Positions 2,153 to 57,984 of a stretch of 64,000 bases of DNA are shown in pieces. Position numbers and translations under genes: made by a program. Position 1 is the stretch's first letter. Each line of letters starts with the position of its first letter. The notes beneath the pieces are model-generated. The model saw nothing but the letters and a program-made list of their open reading frames with translations, did not search any database and was not told the origin of the DNA. Source of the DNA: Eledone cirrhosa (taxonomy: Eukaryota); contig OZ024743.1 of NCBI GenBank assembly GCA_964016885.1, forward strand, positions 285,076,001 to 285,140,000. The letters run 5' to 3'.

Positions 2153-2200
2153 ATTATTATTATTATTATTATTATTACTATTATTATTATTATTATTATT
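2153..2200. repeat. (TTA)~16 microsatellite between the head-to-head Dong and Tx1 elements
   Basis: Read directly from the sequence. Confidence 0.95.
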
Positions 2201-2414
2201 GGCGACCTACATAGGAAATCGTATTATCGTCAGCTCAGCAAAGGTTTGTTGTTTTCAGTTGTTTCAAATTGCCATTTATGGAAAATTTTTGTTGTTAAGT
2301 GTTAAAAAGTTCACATATATTGCTTTCGGGAAAGGATACTCAAAGAGATTGGAGCCTTGAGCCCAAAATTTAAAATTTTATAATTATCAAACAAAAAATT
2401 TCTTTGAAAAAATC

Positions 2415-4389
2415 ATGGATGACTCACAGCCACACCAGGCTGACAGCCTTCCTCACAAACTAACACCTCACACCAACACCACCATTGTAAATATTACTAC
2501 GTTTGCCAACACTAAAAATATAAGCAGTAGCAATAATTTAAATTTGTCTCATGCAGACATTCATTTCCCGCCATTACCAAAAACTGCAGGTGTTAAAGCC
2601 GCCACCCCACCACCACCATAGCGACAACAGAAACAAAACAAAAAAATTATTATCTCGTGACATCGAAATGGATTCACCCAGAATCGACTCTTCCACACCG
2701 AACACCACTGACGCCACCACCACCACAATTGAAACTAAAAATAACAATAACAAAAATAACAATAACAACAACAGCAACAACAACAATGAGAATAACAACA
2801 AAAACATCAACACCACCGCAAATGTGTCGTTTGCCAAAGCAGCCAAGAAATGCGAAACAATCGAGGTAACTCAGGAGGAATTAAATGAAGCCAAGAGAAT
2901 GGTAAAGAAAGATGGGTACAGTGTCAGCCTCCCCCCCCCCCTAATAAAATGGAACATTGGGGCCTATGCACCGTGTCTTGTCGAACGATTAACGCAAAAT
3001 CGCGCCGAGTGGAATGGGCATCCGAGTCCCAAATCCAAAAAGCTTTGGGACATGTGTGGGTGAAAAAAAGCCACATCAAACGTGGGCAGAAATATGGAAC
3101 CGTGGGCGTGTTCTTTGGAACACCACAGGAGGATAGAGAGCACTCCATGGCCCCGTTAAGAAGCGACGACTTCACACTCGTCCCAAGCTATTGTGGCCAG
3201 AGACTCATGAAGATCAGGGTGACCCACGTTCCACCGGCCATCAAAATTCCCTGGCTAATGGCTGCCGTCTTCGCCGGCATCGAGGCCAACACCAAAATAA
3301 TTGAAATATCAAAAGAAAAGCAGGAGAACTGGTCCGGATTTGGGATGGAGCTCCTGATCCAAGTGGACCAAAAAAGCATTGAGGAAATCCCAGAGGTAAT
3401 AGACCTCACTGACGGCAGCCAGCTCACCATAATCGTCGAGGGTAGAAGGCCTAGGTGTATCGTTTGTGATGAAGGAACCCACCTAAAGGCTTTCTGCCCT
3501 CAGGCTAAAAAGTTGAGGCCACCTCTCTTACCCACCCCAGTGACTCAACCATCAACACCACCAGCAGCAGAAATGGCAGCAACAACTGTAGCAGCAACAA
3601 CAAAAGCAACTGTAGCAGCAACAACCCCAGTAACAGTAACAAAACCAACACCACCACCGCACCAAGACTAGCACCAGCGCCTCCACCATCCACCACGCCA
3701 CAACCAAAACCAACGCCGGTGCAGGATTTTCCACTCCCCGACCTATCGTAACTGGAGACAGATTGTGACGATGGGGAGTGGGAAACTGTATCAGGAAAAA
3801 AGAAAAAAACAAAAAGAAGCCAAAAAAGAAAAAATCTTCTTCCTTCCCCCTCCAAAAATAAAATACAGAGGGAAACAAATAAACTATCAAACAAAAAAGT
3901 TAGGACAGCTATGCCACCATACACACCAGCATTACCAACCCCATCACCACAAACACCAATACCATCACCACAAACACCAACACCATCACCATCATTAACC
4001 CCAACACCACCATCACCCGTCACCACAAAAGTCACCAAAAAGTGAAACAGAAACAAACCCACAACAAATGCAAACAAAATAACTAAAACAATACACACTA
4101 CACAGCATTAAATTTGAACAAAAACCAATTATTACACTACATCCAACACAACACAAGCATCACAGAAAAAGACTACACAACACCCCAAAAGTTCACACCA
4201 CCTCCACACATACAAATCACTCGCATCACACAGAAAACGTACACGACACTAAAACAAAAATTCCCCAAAGACATCGGAGACTTCCGACAAGCACTCTCCA
4301 GGAGGATTTATAAGGACATCCTTCCGGAGGAGGCCACAAGCAGTGAAAAGGATGGAGAAACCATCCTTCTTCTACGCGAAGTAAGGTAA
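2415..4389 (+). pseudogene. Tx1 ORF1 (gag-like), frameshifted: RRM-like region, CCHC knuckle, P/T-rich linker
   Basis: ORF pieces 2415-2621, 2551-3063, 2949-3671 and 4114-4389; CX2CX4HX4C knuckle CIVCDEGTHLKAFC. Confidence 0.85.
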
Positions 4390-4423
4390 GTGGTCTTTCC
4401 CATCTTTTCCACTCCTTTTCAAC

Positions 4424-7400
4424 ATGACCTCAGTCAGAATAGGCAGCACAAATGCGCGTGGCTTGGGGTCGTCATGGAAGCAGGGCCACCTGCTCAACGA
4501 CCTCAGGTTACTAAACATAGATGTAGTGGCCATCAGCGAGACTAGAATCTCCAGAGCACAGGCCTTCGCACCGATCTTCGGCGGCTACGATGTGTACGCA
4601 TCTCCCAGCCGTCCTGAATCGGGGGAGGAGTTGCTGTGCTTTTTGGAGAGGTTTGGATCTCGCCATACGGGCCATCTTCCTGGATCCAGAAGGTAAGTTG
4701 GTGGTGCTGGACGTGACCAGCGGAGATGGGCAAGCTTTCAGGCTAGTGGCCGTCTATGCCCGGGCAGGAGCAGGGCAGCCTGATTTCTTCCGGCGTCTGG
4801 AGACCTTTCTTGGAACGTCCTGCTCTTTAGTGTTAGTGGGTGACTAGAACGGGATCTTAGATGCACGCTGGGACTGTGTGGGATTAGCGGATAGGGGAGG
4901 AGGGTGCAAGAGCCTCACCAGCCTGCTCAGGCGTTTTGAACTGTCTGACAGGTACCAATTGGATTTCCCGAATGTGCCAATGTGGACCTGAACAAACCGC
5001 ATCGGGTCATCCAGATCATATCTAGATAGAGTATTTTGTAGGGAAATAGATAGGTCTAGCATAGGCTGTCCACAATTCAAGATAGTCTGCTACACGGACC
5101 ACAAATTTGTGATCTGTGTGCTTGACTTAGATAGGCTTCATAGACGAGGACCCGGCTACTGGAAGCTAAAAGCGTCCTTACCAGCGCGCAAGGCCTACAG
5201 AGACCGGATTAGCGAACTAGTTAAGCGGGCGTTGACGGGGGCCATCGTCGACAACAAGTGGTGGTTTGCTCTGAAAAGAGCAATTAGAATAGAGTCCATT
5301 AGGTTTAGTAAGGCTTTAGCAATAGAGAAAAATAGAGCAGAGGGAGAACTAGTTAGAAAATTAGACGAGGCGCTTAGCAAAGGCATCGCGACCGACGTAC
5401 TTGCGGCGAAATTGGCCCTTGACCAATTCTTCAATGCAAAGCACGAAGGCTGCGTTATCAGAGCTAGGGTGCGTGCTCTCAGACGCGAGGGGACGAAAGC
5501 CATTCAATGGGCCCGATGGCGGACGTGCGTCGTGGCAACAAAGCCACGATCCGGTCTTTGGTGGACCACGACGGGGACATGCTACTCAATCCCGGGCAAA
5601 TGTGTCAAGCTTTTCAGTGACACTTCGCACAGCTGTCTACCTCGACAGACTGCCACGGCTCTCGGCCACTGAGGCAGAGTGTTGCGAAAAGCCGATAACA
5701 GCCGCTGAAGTACAGGAGGCAATGACTGGCTGCACAAGGGGTAAATCGCCTGGTTTGGATGGTCTGCCCTATGAACTTTACGTACAGATGCCAGACTTGT
5801 TCGGAGGCCTCTTGGCGGACGTCTACAGCAACTAGTAACAGAACGGGAGAATTCCCAGCTCTGTGAGCCGAGGAGCTGTGGCGCTGCTGAGAAAGGATCC
5901 GAACAAGGGGGATAACATAGATAATTTCAGGCCCATAACTCTGCTAAACACAGAGTTCAAGATTTTGGCCAAGGTGCTAGCAAAGAGGTTGGCACTTGTC
6001 GTTGGTGGTCTAGTGGGAGAGGCGCAGACATGCGCCATTCTCGACAGATCGATCCACGACAACCTCCACCTCATGCGATACATCATAGAGAGGGTAGCTA
6101 GGGAACCTGGCACGGGTGGGTCCTTGATCAATTTAGATCAGTCGAAAGCTTTCGATAGGGTCGACCATCGTTACCTAGCGGCAGTCCTGAGGGCGGCTGG
6201 CTTTGGACCCATCTTCAGAGGCTGGATCGCTGCCATGCACAGCGACATCTGCTCTGTGGTGAGAGTGAACGGTCACCTTTCGGAACCGTTCAACATCATT
6301 CGCTCGGTCCGCCAAGGATGTCCCCTCTCGTCCCTCTTGTACGTATTGACTCTCGAGCCATTACTGCACAAACTGGAGACGTTGAGGAGCGTCCCGCGCG
6401 AACTAGGATGCGGAAGATCCGTGTCAGCATATGCGGACGATGTCACCGTAGTGGTGTCGAACGCCAAACACATCGAGGCGATCGGCACTACACTAAGAGA
6501 ATACAAAGCGGTGACAGGAGCAATGATCAACCAGGAAAAGTCAGTGGGCCTGCAGCTCAGCACCTGGAGAGGCAGATCCATGCCGTCCAACAACGTCGTC
6601 GGGTGCTGGACAGACGGACTGGTTAAATTGCTAGGGGTCTGGTTCGGTCCGGACCTCCAGACGGACAAAAGCTGGGACGAGGTGACGAGCAGGGTGGCTT
6701 CTCTCACCCAGAAATGGGCGGAGAGGAAGCTATCCCTGAAAGCTCGAGTGGAGGTGGCTAACGCGTATATCGCGTCCGTCATCTACTACCGCCTGACCGT
6801 CGTACCTTGTCCTAAGCCCCGCCTGACTGCGCTGGAGCGCTTGCTCTTTTGCTTTTTGTGGAAGGAACGCGCTCCGATGGTCAGGCGGTCCATCTGTTGT
6901 CAACACCTGCTAAATGGAGGGCTGGGCATGCCGTGGCTGATGATGCGCAGACACGCGCTCAGGCTACGACATCTCCACCTCTTCCTCGACGGTGATCAGG
7001 TGTGGTCGCCGTTTTTCTAGACGCGTCTTTCCCCAGCTCGTCTCCTTGACAGAGCTGCAGTCCTGCGTCAAGCGAAGACCAAGAGGGAGCGCTTGGAGAC
7101 TGGAATGTCTTCAGGCGCTCACAGCCCTCGACCAATTGGGCAATGTGATCGGTGGAAACTCCACCTTGGCGTTCTATAGAGGATTAGTGGAGGGGAAGAG
7201 CGACGACGTACTTGGAGAAATTCTAGGCGTCGACGAAAATCGACTAGCCAATCTCTTCGGAAGAACTTTCGGGCCGGGGCCTATGGACAACTTCCAGAAA
7301 TCCCTGGCCTGGCAGTGCTACCGAGGAGCTTTGCCAGTTCGGGATAAACTCTACAGGCATGGAGGTGCCGTCAGCCAGGCATGGAGGTGCCGTCAGCCAG

Positions 7401-7769
7401 GCATGTCAGAGATGCGCGCAGAGCGACGAAACCATCCTGCACGCACTCGTCCAGTGTCCGAGCATTGCTGACTTGTGGGTTTATGTCGAACACCTGCTAC
7501 CGCTGAGTCCATCGTGAGGATTGCCCTGCCCTCTTCTTTTAGCCGTAGTGGCTATGGTGAAAGAGATAGTATGGTGGACACGTTTGAAAGGGCTGAAGAC
7601 GAGCACTTACCTCTTCGGTGATGCCCTGATTAACTTTTTCAAATTTCATTTGAAAAGGAAAATCAGGGTAGAGAGGGGAGTGCTCTCTTCCCAGCATTTT
7701 GTTGAAAGATGGGTGAGAGAAGCAAGTATGGCCCGAGTGAATGGGCCTACTCTGAGTATGTGTCTGTAA
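4424..7769 (+). pseudogene. Tx1 ORF2 (APE endonuclease, RT, C-terminal zinc finger), disrupted
   Basis: IGSTNARGL, ISET, LVGD.NG, SYLDR and DH (APE); KSPGLDGL, FRPITLLN, DQSKAFD, RQGCPLS and AYADD (RT); several stops, frameshifts and small deletions. Confidence 0.92.
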
Positions 7770-8039
7770 ATTAAAGGTGGAAAACTGGGAGAGGGCACTT
7801 GCCCTGGTGGTCAGGGTCACTGTGGCCTTTTAATGGGCTTTCTCCACAAATGTCCCTCGGAAGTCTCCCCCCTATTGGGGAATTTTTCATTGTTATTTTT
7901 TTGTTACATCCTCTGTTTTTGGTTTTTTTTACACACAGAAATGCCCATTTGTACCGTCCTGTATTGTCCTTAATGTCTACTTATGTAAACCCTTGTGGTT
8001 AATAAAGAAACCATTATTATTATTATTATTATCCTCCTC

Positions 8040-18845: not shown

Positions 18846-20259
18846 TATCTCTTTCTCTTAATTTTGAGTATATTTTTTTTGGACCGACCACCTTCCTGGT
18901 GGCAAGGTTGTAATAGAAAAGAAATTGTCATCCCTTGAATCGCAAGAATGTTTTGCAAATTTTGAAGGTGCCAGCTATCACAGCCATTTGTAGACTATGA
19001 ATTAGGGAGCTGGGCTTTTTGTCCGCAAATCCAAGTTCAGTCATAATTTGGTCCAAGCGGGTTGGTATATAACCCGTAGCTCCAATAATGATGGGTATGA
19101 AGCTAAAGGTTTATCTTGGATACTGGATTTGTAAACTCCTCATCAATGGTCCATAGATGTCCTCCTTCTCTTGTATTTTTCTGACAACGTTTACATCAAG
19201 TGGGCAGCTGATCTCCACAACAGAACACGTTTTCAATGTGTGGTCCCAAACAACAATATCAGGCCGGTTGTGCTTTAATTTGGTGGCAGTTTTTATTTTC
19301 AGGTTCCACCAGTATTCCTTAGTGCCATCTGTCTCAATATATTTTTCCTCGTTTGTTGTTAATTTTGTTTTCCGAAGTGTGTTTCAGATGGTTCTAGCTA
19401 TCCCATCGTGTCTCATGGGGAGGTAGTAGCGAGATGACATTCTTTCGCAGCTGGCAACAATGTGGCTTACATCCTCGATCTTTGTTTTACATAGCCTACA
19501 TTTATTGTCAGCTGCTGGCCCTCCTCTTTTGTGCAGCAGATATTTGGTAGGGAGTTCTTGTTCCTGTATTGCATAGAGATATCCCTCAAGGTGTGATGTC
19601 ATAAACTTGTCGGAACTCCATGCCAGGCTTTTTGAGTGGTTTATCCCCTCTATGGTCTGTATTTTACGTCTCAAGTATCCATGCACAACTTTTTCTGTAA
19701 ATTGGTCAATTTTTTTATCTTGTTTGAACATTGAATAGGATCTTCCGATTTCTCTGGGTGAGAGATTTATATCAGGCTTTATTCCATATCTCTCCTCCAG
19801 ATCAGTCGCTATTCTAATGATATTTTTTTTTTCATGCTCATAAACCTGGGCAAGATGGTTGCCAACCTTTTTCCTCTGTTGAAGGTGTTGCTTCAGTGTT
19901 ACTATCCGGGTCTCATATGTTGTTAATATTGATTTTAGACCCCGGCCACCTTCCTTGCGTGAGAAGTATAGCCTATCCACATCACCAGTGATGTTAAAGT
20001 TCCCAGTAACACTGAGAAGTTTTCGAGTTCTAACATCCATCTCACTTAGTTCTTGCAATGACCAGTTCAGCAGGCCAAATGTTGGTGTTAGAATTGGCAC
20101 AGCATAAGTATTGTGGGCAATGTATTTGTTGTATACTGACAGTTCTGATGACCATATTTTCTTTACTCTTCTGAGGTATTCAGTTCTGGTTCTCTCCTTA
20201 TTTATGGGTCCATCATATCTGACATTCTCATCCTGTCCAAGATATCTGTAGTTGTCACC
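18846..20259 (-). mobile_element. 5'-truncated R4/Dong-type RLE retrotransposon, family 2, flanked by (TATG)n on both sides
   Basis: DVDRLYFSRKEGGRGL, CRLCKTKIEDVSHIVASC, RHD, HNRPDIVVWD..VEISCP; (TATG)n at 18788-18844 and from 20260. Confidence 0.88.
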
Positions 20260-29658: not shown

Positions 29659-29994
29659 ATATAATAAACTATGTTCAAAACATTTTATTGCTGACAATCG
29701 TTTCTTCCAAACTTTCGTTTGGAATCATCGGAGCACTAGCAAAATTTAGACATATAATTAACCTCCTATTCCACAGAACAATCGTAAAGATACATAGATG
29801 TTAGTGTTGTCATTAACAGTGTCATATTTAAAGAGTGAAGATGATGGGGTCAGTATCAGTGGATGCGACAAAGATTATAAAAGAATAATACAATATCCCG
29901 GCTCTGTAAAACATCTGATGTATTTACATTGAGCTATTTTTCTTAGTGGTAATAAGGTGGTAATGAGTTACTGACCTTTCCTGTTTATAATTAT

Positions 29995-30892
29995 ATCGGT
30001 GGAAACTCCACCTTGGCGTTCTATAGGGGATTAGTGGAGGGGAAGAGCGATGACGTACTTGGAGAAACTCTAGGCGTCGACAAAAATCAACTAGCCAATC
30101 TCTTCGGAAGGACTTTCGGGCCAGGGCCTATGGACAACTTCCAGAAATCCCTGGCCTGGCAGTGCTACCGAGGAGCTTTGCCAGTTCGGGATAAACTCTA
30201 CAGGCATGGAGGTGCCGTCAGCCGGACATGTCCGAGATGCGTGCAGGGTGATGAAACCGTCCTGCATGCACTCGTCCAGTGTCCGAGCATTGCTGACTTG
30301 TGGGTTTATGTCGAACACCTGCTGTCACGTGTGGGACGGATCCGGCTATCAGCTGAGTCCATTGTGAGGATTGCCCCGCCCTCTTCCTTTAGCCGGGAAG
30401 GGCAGGCAGTTTTTATCTGTCTGGTGGCCATGGCGAAAGTGATAATATGGTGGACACGTTTGAAAGGGCTGAAGACGAGCACTTACCTCTTCGGTGATGC
30501 CCTGATTAACTTTTTCAAATTTCATTTGAAAAGGAAAATCAGGGTAGAGAGGGGAGTGCTCTCTTCCCAGCATTTTGTTGAAAGATGGGTGAGAGAAGCA
30601 AGTATGGCCCGAATGAATGGGCCTACTCTGAGTATGTGTCTGTAAATTAAAGGTGGAAAACTGGGAGCGGGCACTTGCCCTGGTGGTCAGGGTCACTGTG
30701 GCCTTTTAATGGGCTTTCTCCACAAATGTCCCTCGGAAGTCTCCCCCCTATTGGGGAATTTTTCATTGTTATTTTTTTATTACATCCTCTGTTTTTTTTA
30801 CACGCAGAAATGCCCATTTGTACCGTCCTGTATTGTCCTGTACTGTCCTTAATGTCTACTTTATGTAAACCCTTGTGGTTAATAAAGAAAGC
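29995..30892 (+). mobile_element. 5'-truncated Tx1 copy with ATAATTAT target-site duplication
   Basis: Matches the 3' 900 bp of copies A and B; intact CPRC..ETVLHALVQC; ATAATTAT at 29987-29994 and 30893-30900. Confidence 0.92.
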
Positions 30893-30984
30893 ATAATTAT
30901 ATATAGTGTATATATAAGAAAAAATAATATTATTATTATTATTTTATATATATATATATATATATATAAATTGAAGAAAAACCA

Positions 30985-37745: not shown

Positions 37746-38109
37746 TGTATCCAAGAAATATATGGTTTTGCACTAGCATGAGAAATCAATGTTAATATAA
37801 TTGATCATAATCGTGATTATAATTTAAGCATTATTATAATTAAAGAAAGATTTACTTCCCACCAGATTCAATAAAATCAGTAACATGCAAATATTAAAAT
37901 TGTTTCTTTGTGCCAATGTATGAAATTATTATCATTATTATTATTATTATTATTTCTTGAAACTTCCTTTGAATTCTGCTTCTTTCCCAAATCATGCTGA
38001 ATGTCAACCTGACACCTGAGGCAAAATTTGATAAAACACACATTTTACAATCAGTTGTCATATAATTGATGCCAGAAAGGCACAAACATCAGTAAATGTT
38101 TTTGCAATT

Positions 38110-39430
38110 TTTTTTAATTGATAATGACCTTCTCAGGACATGAACACTGCCAGACAGCACTATGTTCTGTATCTTTTGTAGAGATGGCTTTCCAGGTATC
38201 TGGTCCAAATATTTTTCAGTTCCCTTTTTTATCATTCCAAATGAGCCAACTATCATTCGTATTGTACAGTCCTTAAGATGCCACATTTCCTCAATTTCAA
38301 TTGATAGATCTTTATACTTACTGAGCTTTACAAACTCTTTCAAGGAGATGTTACAATCTGATGAAATGCTCATGTCAATTAAGAAACATGTTTTCTCTTT
38401 ATGGTCCCTCACAATTATATCAGATCTGTTGGCTTTAATTGTTCTGTCAGTATTCACAGGGAAATCCCATCAGGTCATCATGTTCTCACCTGCTGTTACT
38501 GCATCTGGGTGATGGTTGTACCATTTTCCCTCCATTTTCAGACCATTAAACCTGCACATTACCCAGTGTAATTACTGCCTCGTTTTATATTCCAGAGGAG
38601 CTAATACTTTGCAGCCCGAAACAAGATGGTCAATGGTCTCAACATGGTCATCACAGAATCAACAGTTTGGGTCAATTCCATTTCTGATCACATTGGCTTG
38701 AAAGTTACACATTGAAAGACACTGGCCTTGTGCAGCCAAAATGAAGCCCTCATTCTCTGCCTTTAGCCCAGAACTCCCTGGCCACGGATGGGTGAGAATT
38801 TGATCTATATCAGGTTCCTTGCTACAGAGTACATATTGCCCATGCAGTGGTCTTTGCTCCTAATTAGTGCCGAGTCTCTATTAACCTTCATGTTTTGCCA
38901 ACACTTTGATATTCTTTCTGGCTTTATTTGCAGAATTTCCATCATTGTCAAACTATATACCCAATTCTTCCACAAACTTCCTTCTTTCTTTTGTGACTGA
39001 CTGTAAACTTTTCTTCCTTTCATGATATGCAACCATTTTCATCATCCAGTCATCTGTGGTTTTAAGGTACTGATTAAGTCCAATGGTTGATATCCTGTAT
39101 GAAAGCTCTAGCTGGATCATACCTTTATCTCCATTTCGTCTAGGGAGATAGAGGCAATCTACATCTGCATTTGGGTTATGTATTCTGTTACAGGTCAAAA
39201 GTTTACTGATTTTGGTGTCCATTCTCTTAATTTTGTTAACATTTGAATTTACGATATTGAAACTGTAGGTGGCAACTAATGGCAGATAATTTATTTTTCA
39301 AGTTAAGCTCAGTTTTCAAGACAGCATGTACTCTCTTCTAGCCATCCTTCCTGATTCTCTCTTTCCTACTGGCGTGGCGAATACCTTGGTCTTCATTGAT
39401 CCCTAAATATTTGTAGGCTTGTTCCTGTTC
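38110..39430 (-). mobile_element. Decayed R4/Dong-type element, family 3
   Basis: DVDCLYLPRRNGDKGMIQL, TDRTIKANRSDIIV..CFLIDMSI, KLSKYKDL, LQKIQNIVLSGSVHVLRRSL. Confidence 0.8.
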
Positions 39431-45762: not shown

Positions 45763-46451
45763 ATATATATATATATATATATAGGTAAATGAGATATCAT
45801 TTTGGTTTCTCTAGTTCAGGTCTGCTTTGATGGAGATCACCACTCTGTTTTGAAAATTTGCCAGTAACGTTGTAAGATATATTCCTCTGTATTTGAATTT
45901 AATTTTTCACAATTGATAATTGAGAATAGCAATTTCAAGACAGGAAAAAAACACATAGCAGTCAATGAAATGTATGTAAATGCTAGAAATAAATCCTAAA
46001 TTCTACTGTATCACTTATCTGTATTAATCTCTTTATATATATATATTCGTAGATTTGATAAAAAGGGAAACTTAAGTTGCTCATGCCTTTTCTTAGGACC
46101 ATTAACAGAGTTACTGAAATAAAATGAAATAAAATAGATAAGTTTGCATACTGTGGAGCGATGAAGATACTGACATTTCAAATAAAGTCCTTCTTCAAAA
46201 AATGAATTTAAAAAAAAACCTTTATGGAGTGCTTACATCTTCATTGCAATATTGGAATCTTCCTTCAAATTTTTTTATCTCGTTTAACAACTGCGTTTAT
46301 TTTCAATTGGTTTTCTGGTTTTTTTTTTTGTTTGTTTGTTCTTTGTGTTTGTTTATTTTTTTGTGTGTGAATTAATTTTCAATCAAACTGTCAAAATTTG
46401 ACTTAAATAACTTTAATAATCACGAATATTATTATTATTATTATTATTATT

Positions 46452-47715
46452 GTTGTTATTCCTTGAATCTCAGTCATTGATGTTGGTTAACTGGAAAGTC
46501 CGTTGGAATGAATATCAAGCCACTACCTGCAGCCTCAGATATTCAGGACGTATCGGAGGGTTCTTGCTGTTCCAAGCAAGCATGCCTTTTGAAGCGTTCC
46601 AAAAAGCGTGAAGGGGCCGATTTTCTTTAACCATCCCTGGAAACTTTTGGAGATAGTCCCCAGTGCGCCTATGACAATCGGGATCACTTTGACTTCATGG
46701 CAGTTCCAAATCCTTTTCACCTCCCACTTTAGGTCCTGGTATCGGTTAATTTTCTCCCTCTCCTTCTCTTGCACTCTCGTGTCGAAAGGGCAGGCCACAT
46801 CCACAATCAGACACAATCTTTTTTCTTTGTCCACAACCACCAGGTCAGGTCTATTGTGTTCCAGTTTTTTGTCCGTCTGTATCCTAAAATCCCACAGCAC
46901 CTTCACCTGATTGTTCTCCATCACCGCCTCTGGCCTATGCTCATACCATTTCTCAGAATGTGGTAAATTGTTTACTTTGCACAGGTGCCAGTGGATCACC
47001 CTGCCCATCACATCGTGTCTCCAGCCCTTATAGTGGGTCTGGGCTAGGTGTTTACACTCGGACACAATGTGAGCCACAGTCTCCTCTCTCTCTCTCTCCA
47101 CAGATCCTGCATAGTGGGCTAGCCTCCTCCTTGTAAATATGGTGCTTCAACCACTTCGTTTTGAGGGCCTGCTCCTGCGCAGCCATTAGCATTCCTTCTG
47201 TAGCCTTTTTGAGGTCTCCTCTTCTCAACCAGTTCCATGTCTGCGGATCTCTAAATTCAGTTTTCTCAAAGAAGGTACTATGAAGGGATTTTCCCTTAAG
47301 GCTGCTCTTCCTCCTTGATGTTATTTCCTCCTTGGACATCCCCTGGCCTACTGTCCCCTCCTTCAGTACAGTTCTGAGCATTGGCTCCTTACTATAGGTC
47401 ACGTATTTGTATAGGTTGTTTTTCTCCATCTGAACACAGTCCTCTATGCTGATAAGACCTCTTCCACCCTCAGATCTCCTTAGGTAGAGTCTATCGACAT
47501 CACTCCTCTTGTGGAACATGTTGTAGATAGTCAATAGCTTCCTAGTCTTCCTATCCATTTCTTTTTGTTCAGCAACATTCCATCTCAGAATTCCCGCACT
47601 GTACCTAATAATAGACACAGCTCGGGAATTTACTGCGCTTATGGCATTTCTGCTGTTCAGATGTGACTTCAATACGCTCCTTACTCTCCGAATGTATTCA
47701 GTTCTTAACAATTCC

Positions 47716-47717
<2 letters not shown>
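46452..47717 (-). mobile_element. 5'-truncated Dong family-1 copy C in (TTA)n
   Basis: RHD and HNRPDLVVVDKEKRLCLIVDVACP (RLE); (TTA)n at 46427-46451 and 47718-47775. Confidence 0.92.
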
Positions 47718-47775
<58 letters not shown>

Positions 47776-47776
<1 letters not shown>

Positions 47777-48036
47777 TCTGAGTATGTGTCTGTAAATTAA
47801 AGGTGGAAAACTGGGAGAGGGTACTTGCCCTGGTGGTCAGGGTCACTGTGGTCTTTTAATGGGCTTTCTCCACAAATGTCCCTCGGAAGTCTCCCCGCTA
47901 TTGGGGAATTTTTCTTTGTTATTTTATTACATCCTCTGTTTTTTACACGCAGAAATGCCCATTTGTACCGTCCTGTATTGTCCTGTACTGTCCTTAATGT
48001 CTACTTTATGTAAACCCTTGTGGTTAATAAAGAAAA

Positions 48037-48037
<1 letters not shown>
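47776..48037 (+). mobile_element. 262-bp Tx1 3'-end insertion in (TTA)n
   Basis: Matches the Tx1 3' UTR; (TTA)n on both sides. Confidence 0.92.
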
Positions 48038-48082
<45 letters not shown>

Positions 48083-48292
48083 GGCGACCAACGTAGTAAA
48101 TCGTATCATCGTGAGCTCTGCAAAGGTTTGTTATTTCCGTTTGTTAAAAATTGCCATTTATGGAAAATTTTTATTGTTAACTATATATAAGCGCACATAC
48201 ATTGTTTTCCGAAAAGGACACCCAAAAAGATTGGGGCCTTGTGCCCAAAATTTAAACTTTTATGATTATCAAAAAATTTCTTTGAAAAAAAA

Positions 48293-50270
48293 ATGGCTAA
48301 TTCACCACTGCACCAAGCAGCTGAAAGCCTTTCTCACAAATTAACACCTCACACCGACACCACCATTGTAAATGATACTACGTCTGCCAACACACACAAT
48401 TTAAGCACTAGCAATATTTTATATTTGTCTCAGGCAGACATTCATTTCCCGCCATTACCAATGACTGCAGGTGTTAAAGCCGCCACCACCACCACCACCG
48501 CGACAACCACCACCCCCACCACCACCGCGACAACAGAAACAAAAGGAAAAAATAAATCAACTCGTGATGTCGAAATATTTTCAACCAAAATGGACTCTCC
48601 CAAACCGAACTTCACTGACGTCACCACCACCACAACTGAAACTAAAATTAATAATAACAAAAATAACGATAGCAACAACAACAACAATGACATTAAAAAA
48701 ACCACCCTGAGTTTTGCCAGAGTAGCAAAACAGTGCGAAGCATATACGGTAACTCAGGAGGAATTAGAAAATGCCAAACAAATGGTAAAGAAAGATGGGT
48801 ACAGGGTCAGCCTCACCCCCACCCCACCCCCCACCTAATAAAATGGAGCATCGGCGCCTATCCACCGTGTCGTATCGAACAATAAATGTAAAATCGCGCT
48901 GAGTGGAACGGGCATCCGAGTCCCAAATCCAAAAAGCTTTGGGACATGTGTGGGCAAGAAAAACCCACATCAGACGTGGGCAGAAGTATGGAACCGTGGA
49001 CGTGTTCTTTGAAACACCAGAGGAGGCTAGAGAACACTCCATGGCCCCATTAAGAAGTGACGACTTCACACTCGTCCCAAGCTATTGTGGCCAGAGACTC
49101 GTAAAGATCAGGGTGACCCACGTTCCACCGGCCATCGAAATTCCCTGGCTAATAGCGGCCGTCCTCGCCGGCATCGAAGCCAACACAAAGATAATAGCAA
49201 TAGCAAAAGAAAAGCAGGAGAACTGGTCCGGATCTGGGATGGAGCTCCTGATCCAAGCGGACCAAAAAAGCATTGAGGAGATCCCAGAGGTAATAGACCT
49301 CACTGACGGCAGCCAGCTCACCGTAATTGTCTAGGGCAGAAGGCCTAGGTGTGTCGTTTGTGGTGAAGGAACCCACCTAAGGGCTTTCTGCTCTCAGGCT
49401 AAAAGGTTGAGGCCACCTCTCTTACCCACCCCAGTGATACAACCATCAACACCACCAGTAGCAGAGATGGCAGCAACAACTGTAGCAGCAACAACAGAAG
49501 CAACTATAACAGCAACAACCCCAGCAACAGTAGCAAAACCAACACCACCACCACCAGCAAAACCAACACCACCACCACCCAACGCTTCAGAACTAGCACC
49601 AGCGCCTACACCATCCACCACGCCACAACCAAAACTAACGCCTGTGGAGGATTTTCCACTCCCCGGCCTATCACAACTGGAGACAGATTGTGACGACGAG
49701 GAGTGGGAAACGGTATCAGGAAAAAAAAAAGAAACCAAAAAAGAAAAAATTCTCTTCCTTCCCCCTCCAAAAACAAAATACAGAGGGAAACAAATGAATT
49801 AACAAACAAAAAAGTTAGGACAGATATGCCACCATCCACACCAGCATCACCAACCGCATCAACCCAAACACCAACACCATCACCATCATTAACCCCAACA
49901 CCACCATCACCTACACCACAAAAGTCACCAAAATGCGAAACAGAAACAAACCCACAACAAACGCAAACAAAACAAAACAACCAAAACGATACACACTACA
50001 CAGCATTAAATTTGAATAACAAGCAATTATTACACCAACATCACAGAAAAAGACTACACAACAACCCAAAAATTCACACCACCTCCACACATACAAATCA
50101 CTCGCATCACACAGAAAACGTACACGACACTAAAACAAAAATTCCCCAAAGACATCGGAGACTTCCGACAAGCACTCTCCAGGAGGATTTATAAGGACAT
50201 CCTTCCTGAGGAGGCCACAAGCAGTGAAAAGGATGGAAAAACCGTCCTTCCTCTACGAGAAGTAAGGTAA
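48293..50270 (+). pseudogene. Tx1 copy B ORF1, frameshifted and with stops
   Basis: Collinear with 2415-4389; CVVCGEGTHLRAFC knuckle. Confidence 0.85.
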
Positions 50271-50304
50271 GTGGTCTTTCCCATCTTTTCCACTCCTTTT
50301 CAAC

Positions 50305-53300
50305 ATGACCTCACTCAGAATAGGCAGCATAAATGCGCGTGGCTTGGGGTCGTCATGGAAGCAGGGCCACCTGCTCAACGACCTCAGGTCACTAAACATA
50401 GATGTAGTGGCCATCAGCGAGACCAGAATCTCCGAAGCACGGGCCTTCGCACCGATCTTCGGCGGCTACGATGTGTACGCATCTCCCAGCCGTCCGGGAT
50501 CGGGGGGGGAGGAGTTGCTGTGCTTTTTCGGAGAGGTTTGGATATTGCCATACAGGCCATCTTCCTGGACCCAGAAGGTAAGTTGGTGGTGCTGGACGTG
50601 ACCAGCGGAGACGGGCAAGCTTTCAGGTTAGTGGCCGTCTATGCCCCGACAGGAGCAGGGCGGCCTGATTTCTTCCGGCGTCTGGAGACCTTTCTTGGAA
50701 CGTCCCGCTCTTTAGTGTTAGTGGGCGACTGGAACGGGATCTTAGATGCACGCTGGGATTGTGTGGGATTAGTGGATAGTGAAGGAGGGTGCAAGAGTCT
50801 CACCAACCTGCTCAGGCGTTTTGAACTGTCTGACCGGTACCGAATGGATTTCCCCGAATGTACCAATGTGGACTTGGACAAATCGCATAGGGTCATCCAG
50901 ATCATATCTAGATAGAGTATTTTGTAGGGAAATAGATAGGTCTAGCATAGGCTGTCCACAATTCAAGATAGTCAGCTACACGGACCACAAATTCGTGATC
51001 TGTGTGCTTGACTTAGATAGGCTTCATAGACGAGGACCCGGCTACTGGAAGCTAAACGCGTCCTTACCAGCGCGCAAGGCCTACAGAGACCGGATTAGCG
51101 AACTAGTTAAGCGGGCGTTGACGGGGGCGATCGTCAACAACAAAGTGGTGGTTTGCTCTGAAAAGAGTAATTAGAATAGAGTAAGGCTTTAGCAATAGAG
51201 AAAAATAGAGCAGAGGGAGAATTAGTTAGAAAATTAGACGAGGCGCTTAGCAAAGGCATCGCGACCGACGTACTTGCGGCGAAATTGGCCCTTGACCAAT
51301 TCTTCAATGCAAAGCACGAAGGCTGCATTATCAGAGCTAGAGTGCGTGCTCTCAGACACGAGGGGACGAAAGCCGTTCAATAGGCCCGAGTGGCAGAGGC
51401 GCGTCGTGGCAACAAAGCCACGATCCGGTCTTTGGTGGACCACGACGGGCGCATGCTACTCGATCCCGGGCAAATGTGTGAAGCTTTTCAGCGACACTTC
51501 GCTCAACTGTTCGGCGGCAGTGGCGGGCCGGATCGAGGGATGGACTTTAGTGTCTACCTCGACGGACTGCCGCGGCTTTCGGCCACTGAGGCGGAGTGTT
51601 GCGAAAAGCCGATAACAACCGCTGAAGTACGGGATGCAATGACTAGTTGCACAAGGGGTAAATCGCCTGGTTTGGATGGTCTGCCCTATGAACTTTACGT
51701 ACAAATGCCAAACTTGTTCGGAGGCCTCTTGGCGGACGTCTACTGCAACTGGCAACAGAACGGGAGAATTCCCAGCTCTGTGAGCCGAGGAGCGGTGGCG
51801 CTGCTGAGAAAGGATCCGAACAAGGGGGATAACATAGATAATTTTAGGCCCATAACTCTGCTAAACACAGAGTTCAAGATTTTGGCCAAGGTGCTAGCAA
51901 AGAGGTTGGCGCTTGTCGTTGGTGGTCTGGTGGGAGAGGCACAGACATGCGCCATTCCCGACAGATCCATCCACGACAACCTCCACCTCATGCGATACAT
52001 CGTAGAGAGGGTAGCTAGGGAACCTGGCACGGGTGGGTCTTTGATCAATTTAGATCAGTCGAAAGCCTTCGATAGGGTCGACCATCGTTACCTAACGGCA
52101 GTCCTGAGGGCGGCTGGCTTTGGGCCCGTCTTCAGAGGCTGGATCGCTGCCATGCACAGTGACATCTGCTCTGTAGTGAGAGTGAACGGTCACCTTTCGG
52201 AACCGTTCAACATCATGCGCTCGGTCCGCCAAGGATGTCCCCTCTCGTCCCTATTGTACGTATTGACTCTCGAGCCATTACTGCACAAACTGGAGACGTT
52301 GAGGGGGGTCCCGCGCGAACTAGGAAGCGGAAGTTCCGTGTCAGCATATGCCGACGATGTCACCGTAGTGGTGTCGAACGCCAAACACATCGAGGCGATC
52401 GGCACTACACTAAGAGAATACGAAGCGGTGACAGGAGCAATGATCAACCAGGAAAAGTCAGTGGGCCTGCAGCTCGGCACCTGGAGAGGCAGGTCCATGC
52501 CGTCCAACAGCGTCGTCGGGCGCTGGACGGACGGACCGGTTAAATTGCTAGGGGTCTGGTTCGGTCCAGACCTCCAGACGGACAAAAACTGGGACGAGGT
52601 GACGAGCAGGGTGGCTTCTCTCACCCAGAAATGGGCCGAGAGGAAGCTATCCCTGAAAGGTCGAGCGGAGGTGGCGAATGCGTACATCGCATCCGTCATC
52701 TACTACCGCCTGACCGTCGTACCTTGTCCTAAGCCCCGCCTGACTGCGCTGGAGCGTTTGCTCTTTCGCTTCTTGTGGAAGGGACGCACTCCGATGGTCA
52801 GGCGGTCCATCTGCTGTCAACACCCGCTACGTGGAAGGCTGGGCATGCCGTGGCTGATGATGCGCAGACACGCGCTCAGGCTACGACATCTCCACCTCTT
52901 CCTCGACGGTTATCAGGTGTGGTCGCCGTTTGCAAGACACGTTTTTCCCCAGCTCGTCTCCTTGACAGAGCTGCAGTCCTGGGTCAAGCGAAGACCGAGA
53001 GGGAGCGCTTGGAGACTGGAATGTCTTCAGGCGCTCACAGCCCTCGACCAATCGGGCAATGTGATCGGTGGAAACTCCACCTTGGCGTTCTATAGGGGAT
53101 TAGTGGAGGGGAAGAGCGACGACGTACTTGGAGAAACTCTAGGCGTCGACGAAAATCAACTAGCCAATCTCTTCGGAAGGACTTTCGGGCCGGGGCCTAT
53201 GGACAACTTCCAGAAATCCCTGGCCTGGCAGTGCTACCGAGGAGCTTTGCCAGTTCGGGATAAACTCTACAGGCATGGAGGTGCCGTCAGCCGGGCTTGT

Positions 53301-53714
53301 CCGAGATGCGCGCAGGGCGACGAAACCGTCCTGCACGCACTCGTCCAGTGTCCGAGCATTGCTGACTTGTGGGTTTATGTCGAACACCTGCTGTCACGTG
53401 TATGACGGATCCAGCTATCAGCTGAGTCCATCGTGAGGATTGCCCCGCCCCCTTCCTTTAGCCTGGAAGGGCAGGCAGTTTTTATCTGTCTGGTGGCCAT
53501 GGCGAAAGAGATAGTATGGTGGACACGTTTGAAAGGGCTGAAGACGAGCACTTACCTCTTCGGTGATGCCCTGATTAACTTTTTCAAATTTCATTTGAAA
53601 AGGAAAATCAGGGTAGAGAGGGAAGTGCTCTCTTCCCAGCATTTTGTTGAAAGATGGGTGAGAGAAGCAAGTATGGCCCGAATGAATGGGCCTTCTCTGA
53701 GTATGTGTCTGTAA
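50305..53714 (+). pseudogene. Tx1 copy B ORF2 (APE-RT-zinc finger); RT region open for 671 codons
   Basis: IGSINARGL, GDWNG, SYTDH, AYADD, CPRC..HALVQC; frameshifts in the APE domain and a TGA at 53403. Confidence 0.92.
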
Positions 53715-53956
53715 ATTAAAGGTGGAAAACTGGGAGAGGGCACTTGCCCTGGTGGTCAGGGCCACTGTGGTCTTTTAATGGGCTTTCTCCATAAATGTCC
53801 CTTGGAAGTCTCCCCCCTATTGGGGAATTTTTCTTTGTTATTTTATTTCAACCTCTGTTTTTTTACACGCAGAAATGCCCATTTGTACCGTCCTGTATTG
53901 TCCTGTACTGTCCTTAATGTCTACTTTATGTGAACCCTTGTGGTTAATAAAGAAAA

Positions 53957-54014
<58 letters not shown>

Positions 54015-57000
54015 GTTCTTTGAGTCTCAGTCATTGATGTTAGTTAACTGGAAAGTTTGTTGAAATGAATATCAAACCACTACCTGCAGCCTCAGATATT
54101 CAGGACGTATCGGAGGGTTCTTGCTGTTCCCAGCAAGCATGCCTTTTGAAGTGTTCCAAAAAGCGGGGCGAGGCCAATTTTCTTTAACCATCCCTGGAAA
54201 GTTTTTGAGATAGTACCTAGTGCGCCTATGACAATCAGGACCACTTTGACTTCATGGCAGTTCCAAATCCTTTTTACCTCCCACTTTAAGTCCTGGTATC
54301 GGTTAATTTTCTCCCTCTCCTTCTCTTGCACTCTCGTGTCGAATGGGTAGGCCACATCCACAATCAGGCACGATCTTTTTTCCTTGTCCAAAACCACCAG
54401 GTCAGGTCTATTGTGTTCCAGTTTTTTGTCCGTCTGTATCCTAAAATCCCACAGCACCTTCACCTGATCGTTTTCTATCACCGACTCTGGCTTATGCTCA
54501 TACCACTTCTCAGAATGTGGTAAATTGTTTACTTTGCATAGGTGCCAGTGGATCACCCTGTCCATCAGATCATCTCTCCAGCCATTATACTGAGTCTGGG
54601 CTAGGTGTTTACACTCGGATACAATGTGAGCCACAGTCTCCTCTCTCTCTCCACAGATCCTGCATAGTGGGCTAGCCTCCTCCTTGTAAATATGGTGTTT
54701 CAGCCACTTCATTTTGAGGGCCTGCTCTTGCGCAGCCATTAGCATTCCTTCTGTAGCCTTTTTAAGGTCTCCTCTTTTCAACCAGTTCCATATCTGTGGA
54801 TCTCTGAATTCAGTTTTCTCAAAGAAGGTACTATGAAGGGATTTTTCATGAAGGCTGCTCTTTCTCCTTGTTGTTATTTCCTCCTTGGACACCCCTGGTC
54901 TATTGTCCTCTCCTTCAGTACAATTCTGAGCATTGGCTCCTTACTATCAGTCACGTATTTGTGTAGGTTGTTTTTCTCCATCTGAACACAGTCCTCTATG
55001 CTGATAAGACCTCTTCCACCTTCAGATCTCCTTAAGTAGAGTCTATCGACATCACTCCTTTTGTGGAATATGCTGTAGATAGTCAATAGCTTCCTAGTCT
55101 TCCTATCCATTTCTTTTTGTTCAGCAATATTCCATCTCAGAATTCCCGCACTGTACCTAATAATAGACACAGCTCGGGAATTTACTGCACTTATGGCATT
55201 CCTACTGTTCAGATGTGACTTTAATACGCTCCTTACTCTCCGAATGTATTCAGATCTTATCAATTCCTTCATTTTTTTGTTCTTGATGTCATCAGCCTCC
55301 AGAACACCCAAATACTTGTATCCTTCTTCAGTGTCAATTTCCTTTATCATCTCACCTGTTGGTACTTGGATTCCATTGCTTCTGCTCAATTTACCCCTCT
55401 TCATCACAAGGACTCCACACTTACTAATACCAAATTGCATACATATATCATTGCTGAAAATACGGACAGTGTCAACAAGCACATCCAACTCCTTCTCATT
55501 CTTCCCGAAGGGCTTAAGATCGTCCTTGAAGAGAAGGTGATTGATGGTAAGCTCCCCCTTTCCCAACTTGTATCCTGCTCTCACTTTTCGCAGTATAATG
55601 GTCAGGGGCATCACGTGAAGGACAAACAACAGAGGGGACAGACTATCTCCCTGGAAGATACCTCTCTTGATCTTCACGCCTCCCAAGGATTCTCCAGCTG
55701 ATGTTAACTCTGTTTTCCAGGACTTCATACTTTTGCTCAACAACTGTCTGATGTTATCTGCCACCTTGACGATCTCTAGGCTTTTGGTGATCCAAGAATG
55801 AGGCACCATGCCAAATGCTTTTTTGTAGTCTATCCATCCCATGGCAAGACCAGTGTGTCTCCTCTTGCAAATCCTCATTACCATCTTATCAATAAGTAAC
55901 TGGTCCTTTGTACCACGGGACTTCTTTCGGCATCCTTTCTGTTCGTCCGGTAGCAAGTTGTTTGTGTGGAGGTGATGGTAGATTTCCTCAGACACAATGC
56001 TTGTCAACAGTTTCCACATTACGGACAGACATGTGATAGGTCTATAGTTGGTAACATCATTACCCTTGATTCGGTCTTTCATTACCAGAACTGTGGTACC
56101 TTTTGTCAACCACTCTGGTACCTCACCTGACATCAAGCCATCATTGAACATGGTTGTCAGTTTCGGGTGGAGGGATGTTATATGTTTAATCCAATACCCC
56201 TGCACACCATCTGGGCCTGGTGATTTCCAGTTGGTTAGTTTTTTGGCCTGTCCCTTAAGAGTTTCAACTGTGATACTCAAATCAGTTTGTTGGTGTGCCT
56301 GTTCACTAATCTCTTTTTGTACTGTCTCAATCCACACTGCCTGGTCATTATGTTTAACATCCTGCTCCCATATTCCTCTCCAGAATGTCTTAGTTTGTTC
56401 CGCCTCAGGGATCAAGTCGTTGCCTCTTTCTTTCCCTTCAAGCTGTCCAAACAACATCTTCTGGTTGTTGTCAAACATGCGGTTCTGTCTATACTGACTG
56501 ACTCTGCTCTCGTATCGCCTAATTTTTGCACTCTTTGCTACAATGCGTTGCTTCAGTTCCTCTATGATAATATTTAGCTTTTTCCTCCTAGTTTTGTACT
56601 TTATTTCCATTCTATTTTTAGTGTCTGTGTTTTTTAGTGTCCCATTCAGTAGGGACTCAAGCTTTCCTTTCCAATGTCATTTCTCATTTCCTTGATTTGA
56701 CCCTTTAGTCGTTTCTTCCACCAAGGTTCTGATCTTTCTTGTTTGTTGTTCCCTCTCACTTTTATGCCAAGTAATTTCCTCACCGCATTTGCTGTTGTTT
56801 TGAGGATATTGTTGCACTGGTGAAGGCTCCTCGCCTCAAGGTATGGGATGACTTTGTTTACCTTAGCTGTTGTTTCTTTTAACTTTTTCCTGTCTACAAA
56901 TCTTAGGTTCATAGATTTCCCACTATCATTGTTCATTTCATCTACCACTAAGTTTAGAATATCAACCAAATCTTGTCCTAGCTCGTCAGCATTCATCTCC

Positions 57001-57921
57001 TCAATGGCCGTATCTCTGTTCCAGGTATTATTTATTTCAGCATTCAGATCATTGTCTGCTTCGGATGGTTCTTCCGTTCTCTGAACCTCTTCACCCTCAT
57101 TTCCCACTGGCTCGTTTGCCTGGCATACTCCACTCTCCATTTCCAACCTAATCTCTCTGCTCAGTTCCTCCAGTTCCAGCTCGCTTATCCACCCATTAGT
57201 TCTTATTACTCGAGCCTGCCCGGCCAATTTTTGTTCATCTAATTTAAATAGACCAATCTCGTTCCAGATGTTATGCATCCGTTTCCTATAGCCTTTTTCC
57301 TTGGGGTTACTCTTCAGGTAACATTGTATAACAGTTCTATTCAATTCTTTCGTCCAGTTGGTTCTGGTCCCTTTCCTTCTTCTTCTTCCTCCGACACCAG
57401 CAGTATTTGGTTGACAGCCAGGTCCCTGCTGCTGAGCCAGGGAGCACCTGCTGGGTGAGAGTCTGTCACATGACATTCCAGTCTCCACTTCACCGTTATT
57501 CGAACTGTTTAGGTTCGACATTGAAACACTCTTATCGAGGATTGGTGAATGTATGGTTACATAACCACCGTTGATTTCATCACCTCCGGTGATTTGATCA
57601 CCCCCTGTGATTTTAGGGTGGCACTATCACGTTGTAGACGAACATAAATAAACAAACAAATAGGTAAAAACCCCAAAAAATAAGCAAAAGTTTCATTGTA
57701 ATGTAATGTTTGAATGTCTGACTTAGTTTTTATGCTTGTCTGTCTGTTTGTTTTTCTTTTCTTTTTTCTTTACTTTACGTTTTTCGTTGCTGCTGTGCGG
57801 TTTTGATTTTGATTTTTGTTTTTGATTTTTTGACGGGGTCATTAAATCAGTCTATTTATATCTTTTCATGCCTTCCTCATTTAGTGGGAATACTACGATG
57901 CCTGTCTTAGCAGGAGGTAGT

Positions 57922-57922
<1 letters not shown>
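54015..57922 (-). mobile_element. Near full-length Dong family-1 copy B; single ORF 57521-54092 broken by two frameshifts
   Basis: Myb-like N-terminus; KSPGPDG, YRPITCL, DYKKAF, GIFQGDSLSPLLF, HLLFKDD; CRICGEREETVAHIVSEC; PD..D RLE motif; (TTA)n at 57923-57981. Confidence 0.94.

Positions 57923-57984
<62 letters not shown>

Follow-up and report, generated by a model that had tools for sequence, protein, structure and literature searches.

A 64,000-nucleotide stretch of the Eledone cirrhosa genome (contig OZ024743.1; C4:285076001-285140000 in the 3.0-Gb assembly), here called the window and numbered from its first letter, contains at 46427-57981 an array in which copies of two families of long interspersed elements (LINEs) lie in opposite orientations within one type of microsatellite. 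The working names Tx-A and Dong1 are used for the plus-strand and the minus-strand family, respectively. The order, strands and sizes of the parts, as described in an earlier note on this DNA, were reproduced on re-measurement. All junctions are microsatellite, and five (ATT)n tracts separate and bound the four copies:

46427-46460, no strand: (ATT)n tract with GTT units
46461-47716, minus strand: R4/Dong-like copy of subfamily b, 1,256 bp, 5'-truncated, with the end of the reverse transcriptase (RT) region, a CCHC knuckle, a restriction-like endonuclease (RLE) motif and the 3' untranslated region (UTR)
47717-47775, no strand: (ATT)19 or (TTA)19 tract between two 5'-truncation points
47776-48037, plus strand: Tx-A copy, 262 bp, 5'-truncated, 3' UTR only
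48038-48082, no strand: (ATT)15 tract
48083-53957, plus strand: full-length Tx-A copy, 5,875 bp, L1 group, Tx1-like, with open reading frame (ORF) 1 broken and ORF2 frameshifted
53958-54014, no strand: (ATT)19 tract, the tail-to-tail joint of the Tx and Dong 3' ends
54015-57922, minus strand: R4/Dong-like copy of subfamily a, 3,908 bp, truncated in the 5' UTR
57923-57981, no strand: (ATT)19-20 tract, also readable as (TAT)19-20

In the full-length Tx-A copy, ORF2 starts at 50305 and contains an apurinic/apyrimidinic endonuclease (APE) domain recognized by Pfam at 50478-50756, an RT at 51825-52556 and a zf-RVT domain at 53214-53372; an AATAAA signal (53946-53951) lies 6 nt before the element end. 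A splice-donor-like motif is present just 5' of the ORF2 start (50260-50305) in both full-length Tx-A copies of the window. The larger Dong-like copy has a single, frameshifted ORF with an RT (56058-55303) and a C-terminal RLE, and the ORFs of both families in the window are interrupted by frameshifts or stops. Position 57922 was considered as the 5' end of this copy and rejected, since 29 of the 30 best genome hits run on upstream as element sequence, not tract. The additional sequence is mostly 5' UTR with ∼70-bp tandem units, and the copy is thus short of ∼500 nt at its 5' end. Such units occur in variable number in the Dong1 5' UTR (window 1668-1810; loci L092-L120). The GTT units in the first tract are accounted for by the AAC AAC tail inherited by the neighbouring Dong subfamily.

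Identity is 93.6% between the two Dong copies and 96.6% between the two Tx copies, which indicates separate insertions rather than a duplicated assembly unit, and tandem duplication or mis-assembly was rejected as the origin of the array. Microsatellites are natural mis-join points and the array is not spanned by read evidence, but an assembly artefact, in which contigs were mis-joined at (TTA)n, is highly improbable given that copies of the same family differ by 3-6%, that the same Tx/Dong adjacencies recur on many contigs, and that neither the polarity rule nor the target-site duplications (TSDs) at unique sites described below would be expected from mis-joins.

Tx-A has two ORFs. ORF2 has an N-terminal APE, an RT and a C-terminal zinc knuckle (Pfam Exo_endo_phos, RVT_1 and zf-RVT in the window copy), and ORF1-sized frames lie upstream. 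An intact natural ORF2 (L251, P0001) encodes 1,131 amino acids. In a search of PDB structures its RT was nearer to human L1 ORF2 (E 6e-50) than to R2 proteins (E 8e-20), and homologue and Atlas searches with the Tx-A protein returned no named Tx1 members. The intact Dong1 ORF (L180, P0002) encodes 1,141 amino acids with an RT, a CCHC knuckle and a C-terminal PD-(D/E)xK RLE. The window copy matches Pfam RVT_1 and gives no APE match; the best PDB matches of the intact protein are R2 proteins, with a weak alignment of the RLE motif, and none of the 114 homologues found is named to clade. By these protein comparisons Tx-A belongs to the L1 group and Dong1 to the R2 group. The labels Tx1 and Dong given in the earlier note therefore stand at group level, and the clade assignments, Tx1 for Tx-A and R4/Dong for Dong1, are likely. 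Tx1 and R1 are the only APE clades with site-specific LINEs (PMC6007223), and microsatellite targeting is also known in some HERO families (PMC4640811). A second Dong family, ∼40% identical to Dong1 in the C-terminal region, likewise ends in AAT, and there are traces of more families. Older, diverged R4-like families, also ending in (AAT)n, are represented at window 37925-39430 (minus strand), L031 and L084.

The orientation of both groups relative to the repeat is nearly invariant. Over the loci gathered up to this tally, with overlapping loci retained, 152 of 158 R4-type 3' ends were followed by AAT, none by ATT and six by neither. The 135 Tx 3' ends at ≥85% identity comprised 115 with ATT, three with AAT (all beginning ATTATAA), three with (AT)n and 14 with no scored tract. 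These counts uphold the earlier proposal of a shared (ATT/AAT)n target used with fixed opposite polarity. Exceptions occur at L373, where a truncated Tx-A is preceded by the (AAT)n of a Dong on the same strand, and at L370, with a reversed copy of a SINE-like repeat described below. Dong copies are also 5'-truncated, and their 5' junctions, read by eye, showed AAT in 18 of the 22 rows from full-length copies and in 26 of the 39 from truncated ones, never ATT, in variable phase. One Dong subfamily carries AAC AAC inside its tail in most of the 100 examples listed among 1,807 pattern matches; since these triplets are inherited, the RNA of this subfamily would include several tail triplets.

The earlier note raised the possibility that most Tx copies have non-microsatellite 5' flanks, in which case (ATT)n would be only a 3' tail. 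In exact-pattern matches over the whole assembly, 2,196 of 2,296 full-length Tx-A 5' ends (95.6%) lie directly after ATTATT, a motif found at 0.10% of positions in the background (60 position-chosen 10-kb stretches, 600 kb). Hence (ATT)n is not just a tail, and a tail-only origin was rejected. The figure also places Tx-A above the threshold of >20% of flanks in Kojima's rule for target preference (PMC4494074). A T is absent before the first element base in just 11 of the 2,296, all within a tract with a mutated last unit. At the 3' end, 6,451 copies continue with ATTATT and 402 with a broken second triplet, two patterns that together cover part of the flanks. A sample from contig C1, consisting of 40 of the first 100 listed Tx-A 3' ends with close neighbours skipped and two chimeras with another ORF1 set aside, contained 23 full-length copies, every one with a 5' tract; 11 of these have a different 5' end and ORF1 and share the same phase. 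A Tx-A variant (L180, L241, L249, L253 and L277) combines another 5' UTR and ORF1 with the same ORF2 from element position 2141 and the same ATT|G 5' phase. (CTT/AAG)n is often found beside the ATT tract or the 5' junction of truncated Tx-A (L376, L377, L370, L062, L071 and L081).

These results bear on the view that neither family targets the repeat, the tracts being 3' tails grown by slippage and the arrays having formed in tolerant regions by recombination or by passive accumulation of copies. For Waldo-A/B, found near CA repeats, a passive build-up has been suggested (PMC3812793). Deletions within elements and chimeric copies are common, and truncated Tx-A often lacks a 5' tract. The 95.6% of full-length 5' ends after ATTATT, compared with 0.10% by chance, together with the strict polarity, TSDs that start with ATT or ATA and the lack of ATT flanks in a sister family (0 of 30, see below), largely refute this view, and we regard it as very unlikely.

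Two further loci with Tx-A lie in the window, the first an array of the same kind, whose Dong-like copy extends almost to the true 5' end:

1-8032: Dong-like 5' part, minus strand (1-2152); (ATT)16; full-length Tx-A, plus strand (2201-8012); (ATT)6
29987-30900, plus strand: truncated Tx-A (element 29995-30892) at a non-microsatellite site, with an 8-10-bp target duplication, ATAATTAT, and no added tail

The geometry of Tx-A insertion was examined by eye at 62 broken-triplet sites, the 40 C1 loci and the window copy at 29995. TSDs readable at 13 imperfect sites are 6-19 bp long and start with ATT in 10 cases and ATA in three. They begin right after the element end and, because the first triplet is also present in the 5' copy, that triplet is target. 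Under the standard target-primed model TSD geometry gives the strand of the primer nick, and on that basis the Tx-A nick is likely to fall on the AAT strand, 3' of ATAAT or ATTAT. At about 16 of the 62 sites hardly more than ATT joins the Tx-A end to a truncated copy, either of Tx or of a SINE-like repeat, which may reflect template jumping or very short TSDs. The usual cleavage distance past AATAAA is 10-30 nt; with the signal 6 nt before the Tx-A end, a few AUU units would be left on the RNA. Four full-length copies (L244, L252, L254 and L272) lack a tract on the 3' side but still have a pure (ATT)n 5' junction without a unique TSD part and this, with the fixed phase, suggests that a target-like repeat is present at the 5' end of the Tx-A RNA. 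Targeting by R2 is said to be strengthened by co-transcribed flanking target (PMC4494074).

The SINE-like (short interspersed element-like) repeat is very abundant and ∼190 bp long (L121-L180; L243:6475-6655), gave 99 hits in 600 kb and has many TSDs of ∼12-19 bp starting with ATTAT. Its polarity is that of Tx-A and its 3' end is loosely similar. From the TSD signature, polarity, 3' end and chimeras it is possibly mobilized by Tx-A; a search for a small-RNA head gave no Rfam match at E 1.

Tx-A and R4-type elements are also neighbours more often than tracts in general would predict. Adjacency was scored in 30-locus samples, the Tx-A 5' sample being the first 30 5' ends on C1. Beyond these 30 tracts lay 11 R4-type and 10 Tx-type elements (any LINE, 21 of 30), compared with three and three (any LINE, six) on the same side of 33 position-chosen control tracts (p 0.014 for R4-type, 4e-5 for any LINE). 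This comparison, which the earlier note had proposed as a check, bears out the co-occurrence. R4-type ends were found beyond 12 of 30 Tx-A 3' tracts, and Tx-type ends beyond 13 of 30 Dong 3' tracts, the array locus among them. The tracts around full-length Tx-A are long, with medians of 46 and 39 bp (sum 85 bp) compared with 20 bp for position-chosen tracts, and so the claim that target is left on both sides of an insertion agrees with what is seen. For SINE-like tails the median is 2 units (n=29), compared with 15 units where they precede a full-length Tx (n=7). Such lengths fit growth of the tract at or after insertion, or may instead reflect a preference for long tracts combined with slippage. 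The two clades share a resource, which explains their adjacency without attraction between them, and nothing seen requires cooperation. Homotypic arrays of at least 25 kb also occur, with five same-strand Tx-A 3' ends 6-7 kb apart at C1:55423672-55449634. Seven tract-free head-to-head joints between a truncated Dong (minus) and a truncated Tx-A (plus) were found (L041, L052, L308, L312, L367, L384 and L400), and these may have arisen by later deletion, by target deletion at insertion or by twin priming involving the two clades.

The best explanation of the observed polarity, flanks, neighbours, Tx-A TSDs and long tracts on both sides is, with a probability of roughly 70%, that Tx-A and several R4/Dong-like families occupy the same (ATT/AAT)n tracts in opposite polarity across the genome and that the arrays were probably built by repeated target-primed insertion, with Tx-A nicking the AAT strand and Dong likely the ATT strand. 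In the proposed mechanism, the Tx-A endonuclease would nick the AAT strand 3' of ATAAT/ATTAT, and the primer would pair with a short AUU that closely follows the AATAAA signal at the 3' end of the RNA. Cleavage of the second strand 6-19 nt away would then produce the TSD. As the full-length RNA would carry a target-like repeat at its 5' end, the cDNA could join the tract upstream always in the same phase. One tract would in this way become two long ones through TSDs, copied repeat and slippage, and both clades, as well as the SINE-like repeat of the same signature, would find their best landing sites in these tracts.

Several points weigh against this explanation. ATT is present at the 5' junction of only 6 of the 15 truncated Tx-A copies in the C1 sample, compared with all 23 full-length copies (Fisher p 3e-5). 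Of the other nine, two abut (CTT)n, one the (AAT)n of a same-strand Dong, three a truncated reverse Dong and three other sequence. The earlier statement that every truncation point is microsatellite thus describes this array and does not extend to truncated Tx or Dong copies generally (6 of 15 and 26 of 39). No Dong TSD or nick was located, the search for off-target TSDs having turned up the AAC-tail subfamily instead; opposite-strand priming, as put forward in the earlier note, accordingly draws on polarity and on the geometry of the Tx-A TSDs. The SINE-like repeat, with the same TSD signature, lies mostly at short ATTAT motifs outside tracts, which implies that the nuclease may see only ∼5 bp and that the bias towards tracts may come from elsewhere. 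The 5' leader and 3' tail length of the Tx-A RNA are deduced from DNA alone. The control is small (33 tracts, with its three left-side R4 cases from two loci), and some locus samples are best hits, which lean young, while others all come from C1. Contigs of one sample and restriction-site-associated DNA (RAD) reads of two others contained no piece spanning the array and no empty allele, and were not counted as evidence.

The behaviour of the SINE-like repeat raises an alternative in which Tx-A is likewise a weak inserter at ATTAT motifs that brings its own (ATT)n from both ends of its RNA, and only Dong is a true microsatellite targeter, colonizing the tracts that Tx-A delivers. The identical signature of the tract-poor SINE-like repeat would be expected in that case, and so would the fixed 5' phase of Tx-A, its insertions at unique ATTAT sites and tracts far longer than paralogous short tails (8 and 19 units at L231, compared with 2-6 in its short repeat family). 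However, a unique TSD enclosing both tracts was found in none of 23 full-length C1 copies and in none of the 7 3' ends recovered out of 14 (these 7 are not decisive). Imperfect-site insertions without added units are a small class (402 compared with 6,451), and another LINE lies immediately past the 5' tract in 21 of 30 copies. We therefore consider this alternative unlikely and retain shared targeting of the tracts by both clades.

A sister Tx1-like family offers a contrast. It is represented by 3,511 3' ends by pattern; among 30 loci, 27 have ATCT after the 3' end and none has (ATT)2. The family resides in (ATCT)n/(AT)n with arrays of its own (L325; loci L322, L323, L325-L327 and L332-L361). 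L322, an intact natural copy with an ATCT-type 3' end, lies within a satellite. Its APE is 51-63% identical to that of Tx-A, with only 1-3 differences in the loop region. The APE loop sets specificity in L1-type nucleases. In a tree of Tx families (16 rows, 201 columns), in which several small clusters are degraded Tx-A copies or wrongly labelled for flank type, the ATT and ATCT families form an open fork from which no ancestral target can be read. Convergence of a Tx1 family on the Dong target, as the earlier note had it, is thus plausible, with the ancestral target of the Tx radiation not readable from the tree. Two other groups use related repeats. A third RLE-type family (window 18846-20259, minus strand; L174; L371), 31% identical to Dong1, has (ACAT)n on both sides in the four of four copies seen and is a possible (TACA)n-targeting element. 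In addition, the tails of a further family of short repeats, which ends in (ATT)2-6 (L006, L136, L157, L230, L231 and L403), serve as landing sites for Tx-A and Dong.

The sister-family contrast invites a broader reading, which is possible but which we put forward only tentatively and as a joint proposal. In this Tx1 radiation the choice of target would depend largely on target-derived repeat at the two RNA ends rather than on the endonuclease. The repeat in the transcript would decide whether a family goes to (ATT)n or to (ATCT)n/(AT)n, the APE loops of the sister families being nearly identical, and each full-length insertion would write microsatellite on both sides, so that a Tx family makes the tracts that R4/Dong elements colonize from the other strand. 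The tract-free Dong/Tx fusions would be twin priming by two clades at one tract. For RTE elements, it has been proposed that 3' repeats of the RNA direct the choice of site (PMC6007223).

Each ingredient of the system has a precedent. Dong elements (Bombyx mori, Anopheles DongAg and snail DongBg) target TAA microsatellites (PMC3812793). Like Dong1, they have a single ORF with RT and C-terminal RLE, and their sense strand reads AAT. In the present genome, at least two well-sampled families, whose C-terminal regions are ∼40% identical, share their tracts with an APE element. Kibi in TC and Koshi in TTC (PMC3812793), crocodilian Tx1 families in (TTCC)n/(TTTC)n (PMC4494074) and Tx1-1_ACar in the telomeric repeat (PMC10088271) are, like Tx-A, L1-group APE elements in simple repeats. 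In contrast to these, the repeat used here is (ATT)n, with a sister in (ATCT)n/(AT)n, copies number in the thousands and an RLE clade uses the same target. Two silkworm families, SART and TRAS, insert in one short repeat, that of the telomeres, in opposite orientations and form arrays (PMC10088271). Both are R1-clade APE elements at chromosome ends, whereas the elements described here have unrelated nucleases and occupy interstitial sites genome-wide. R1 and R2 are both found in 28S rDNA. Keno (Tx1, APE) and Utopia (NeSL, RLE) similarly combine APE and RLE clades on one multicopy target, the U2 small nuclear RNA genes (PMC4494074, PMC4640811). Those gene targets are fixed sites disrupted by insertion, unlike a 3-bp repeat that is renewed on both sides. 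Crocodilian SINEU shares the target of Tx1-Mar with weaker specificity and tandem insertion (PMC4494074); the link between the SINE-like repeat and Tx-A comes instead from TSD signature, polarity, a loosely similar 3' end and chimeras, with no small-RNA head confirmed.

In octopus, Dong-R4 and L1-Tx1 elements are reported to be abundant or recently active, with no target analysis in the available text (PMC13282606, PMC8967140), and the available parts of PMC8869645, PMC4758252 and PMC4824008 contain nothing on this system. A literature search that covered neither Repbase Reports nor supplements or figures (the Fig. 3 labels and supplements of PMC4494074 could bear on the point) did not reveal a Tx1 family in (ATT)n or arrays that mix Tx1 and Dong. 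The novelty that the earlier note saw in a shared two-clade system is therefore tempered by Keno/Utopia and SART/TRAS, and what appears undescribed in the accessible sources is the combination together with the new targets, namely the (ATT)n Tx1 family and arrays of this kind.

These results add (ATT)n and (ATCT)n/(AT)n to the list of targets of Tx1-like elements and indicate that, on a genome scale, an APE and an RLE lineage partition one microsatellite by strand. The young, intact sister families, with APE domains 51-63% identical, almost the same loop and different repeats, constitute a natural test of endonuclease versus RNA-primer pairing in LINE site choice, and this contrast is the most testable part of the proposal. 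Long ATT tracts in such genomes would largely be both products of retrotransposons and their landing sites, which bears on the use of microsatellite markers and on the assembly of these loci.

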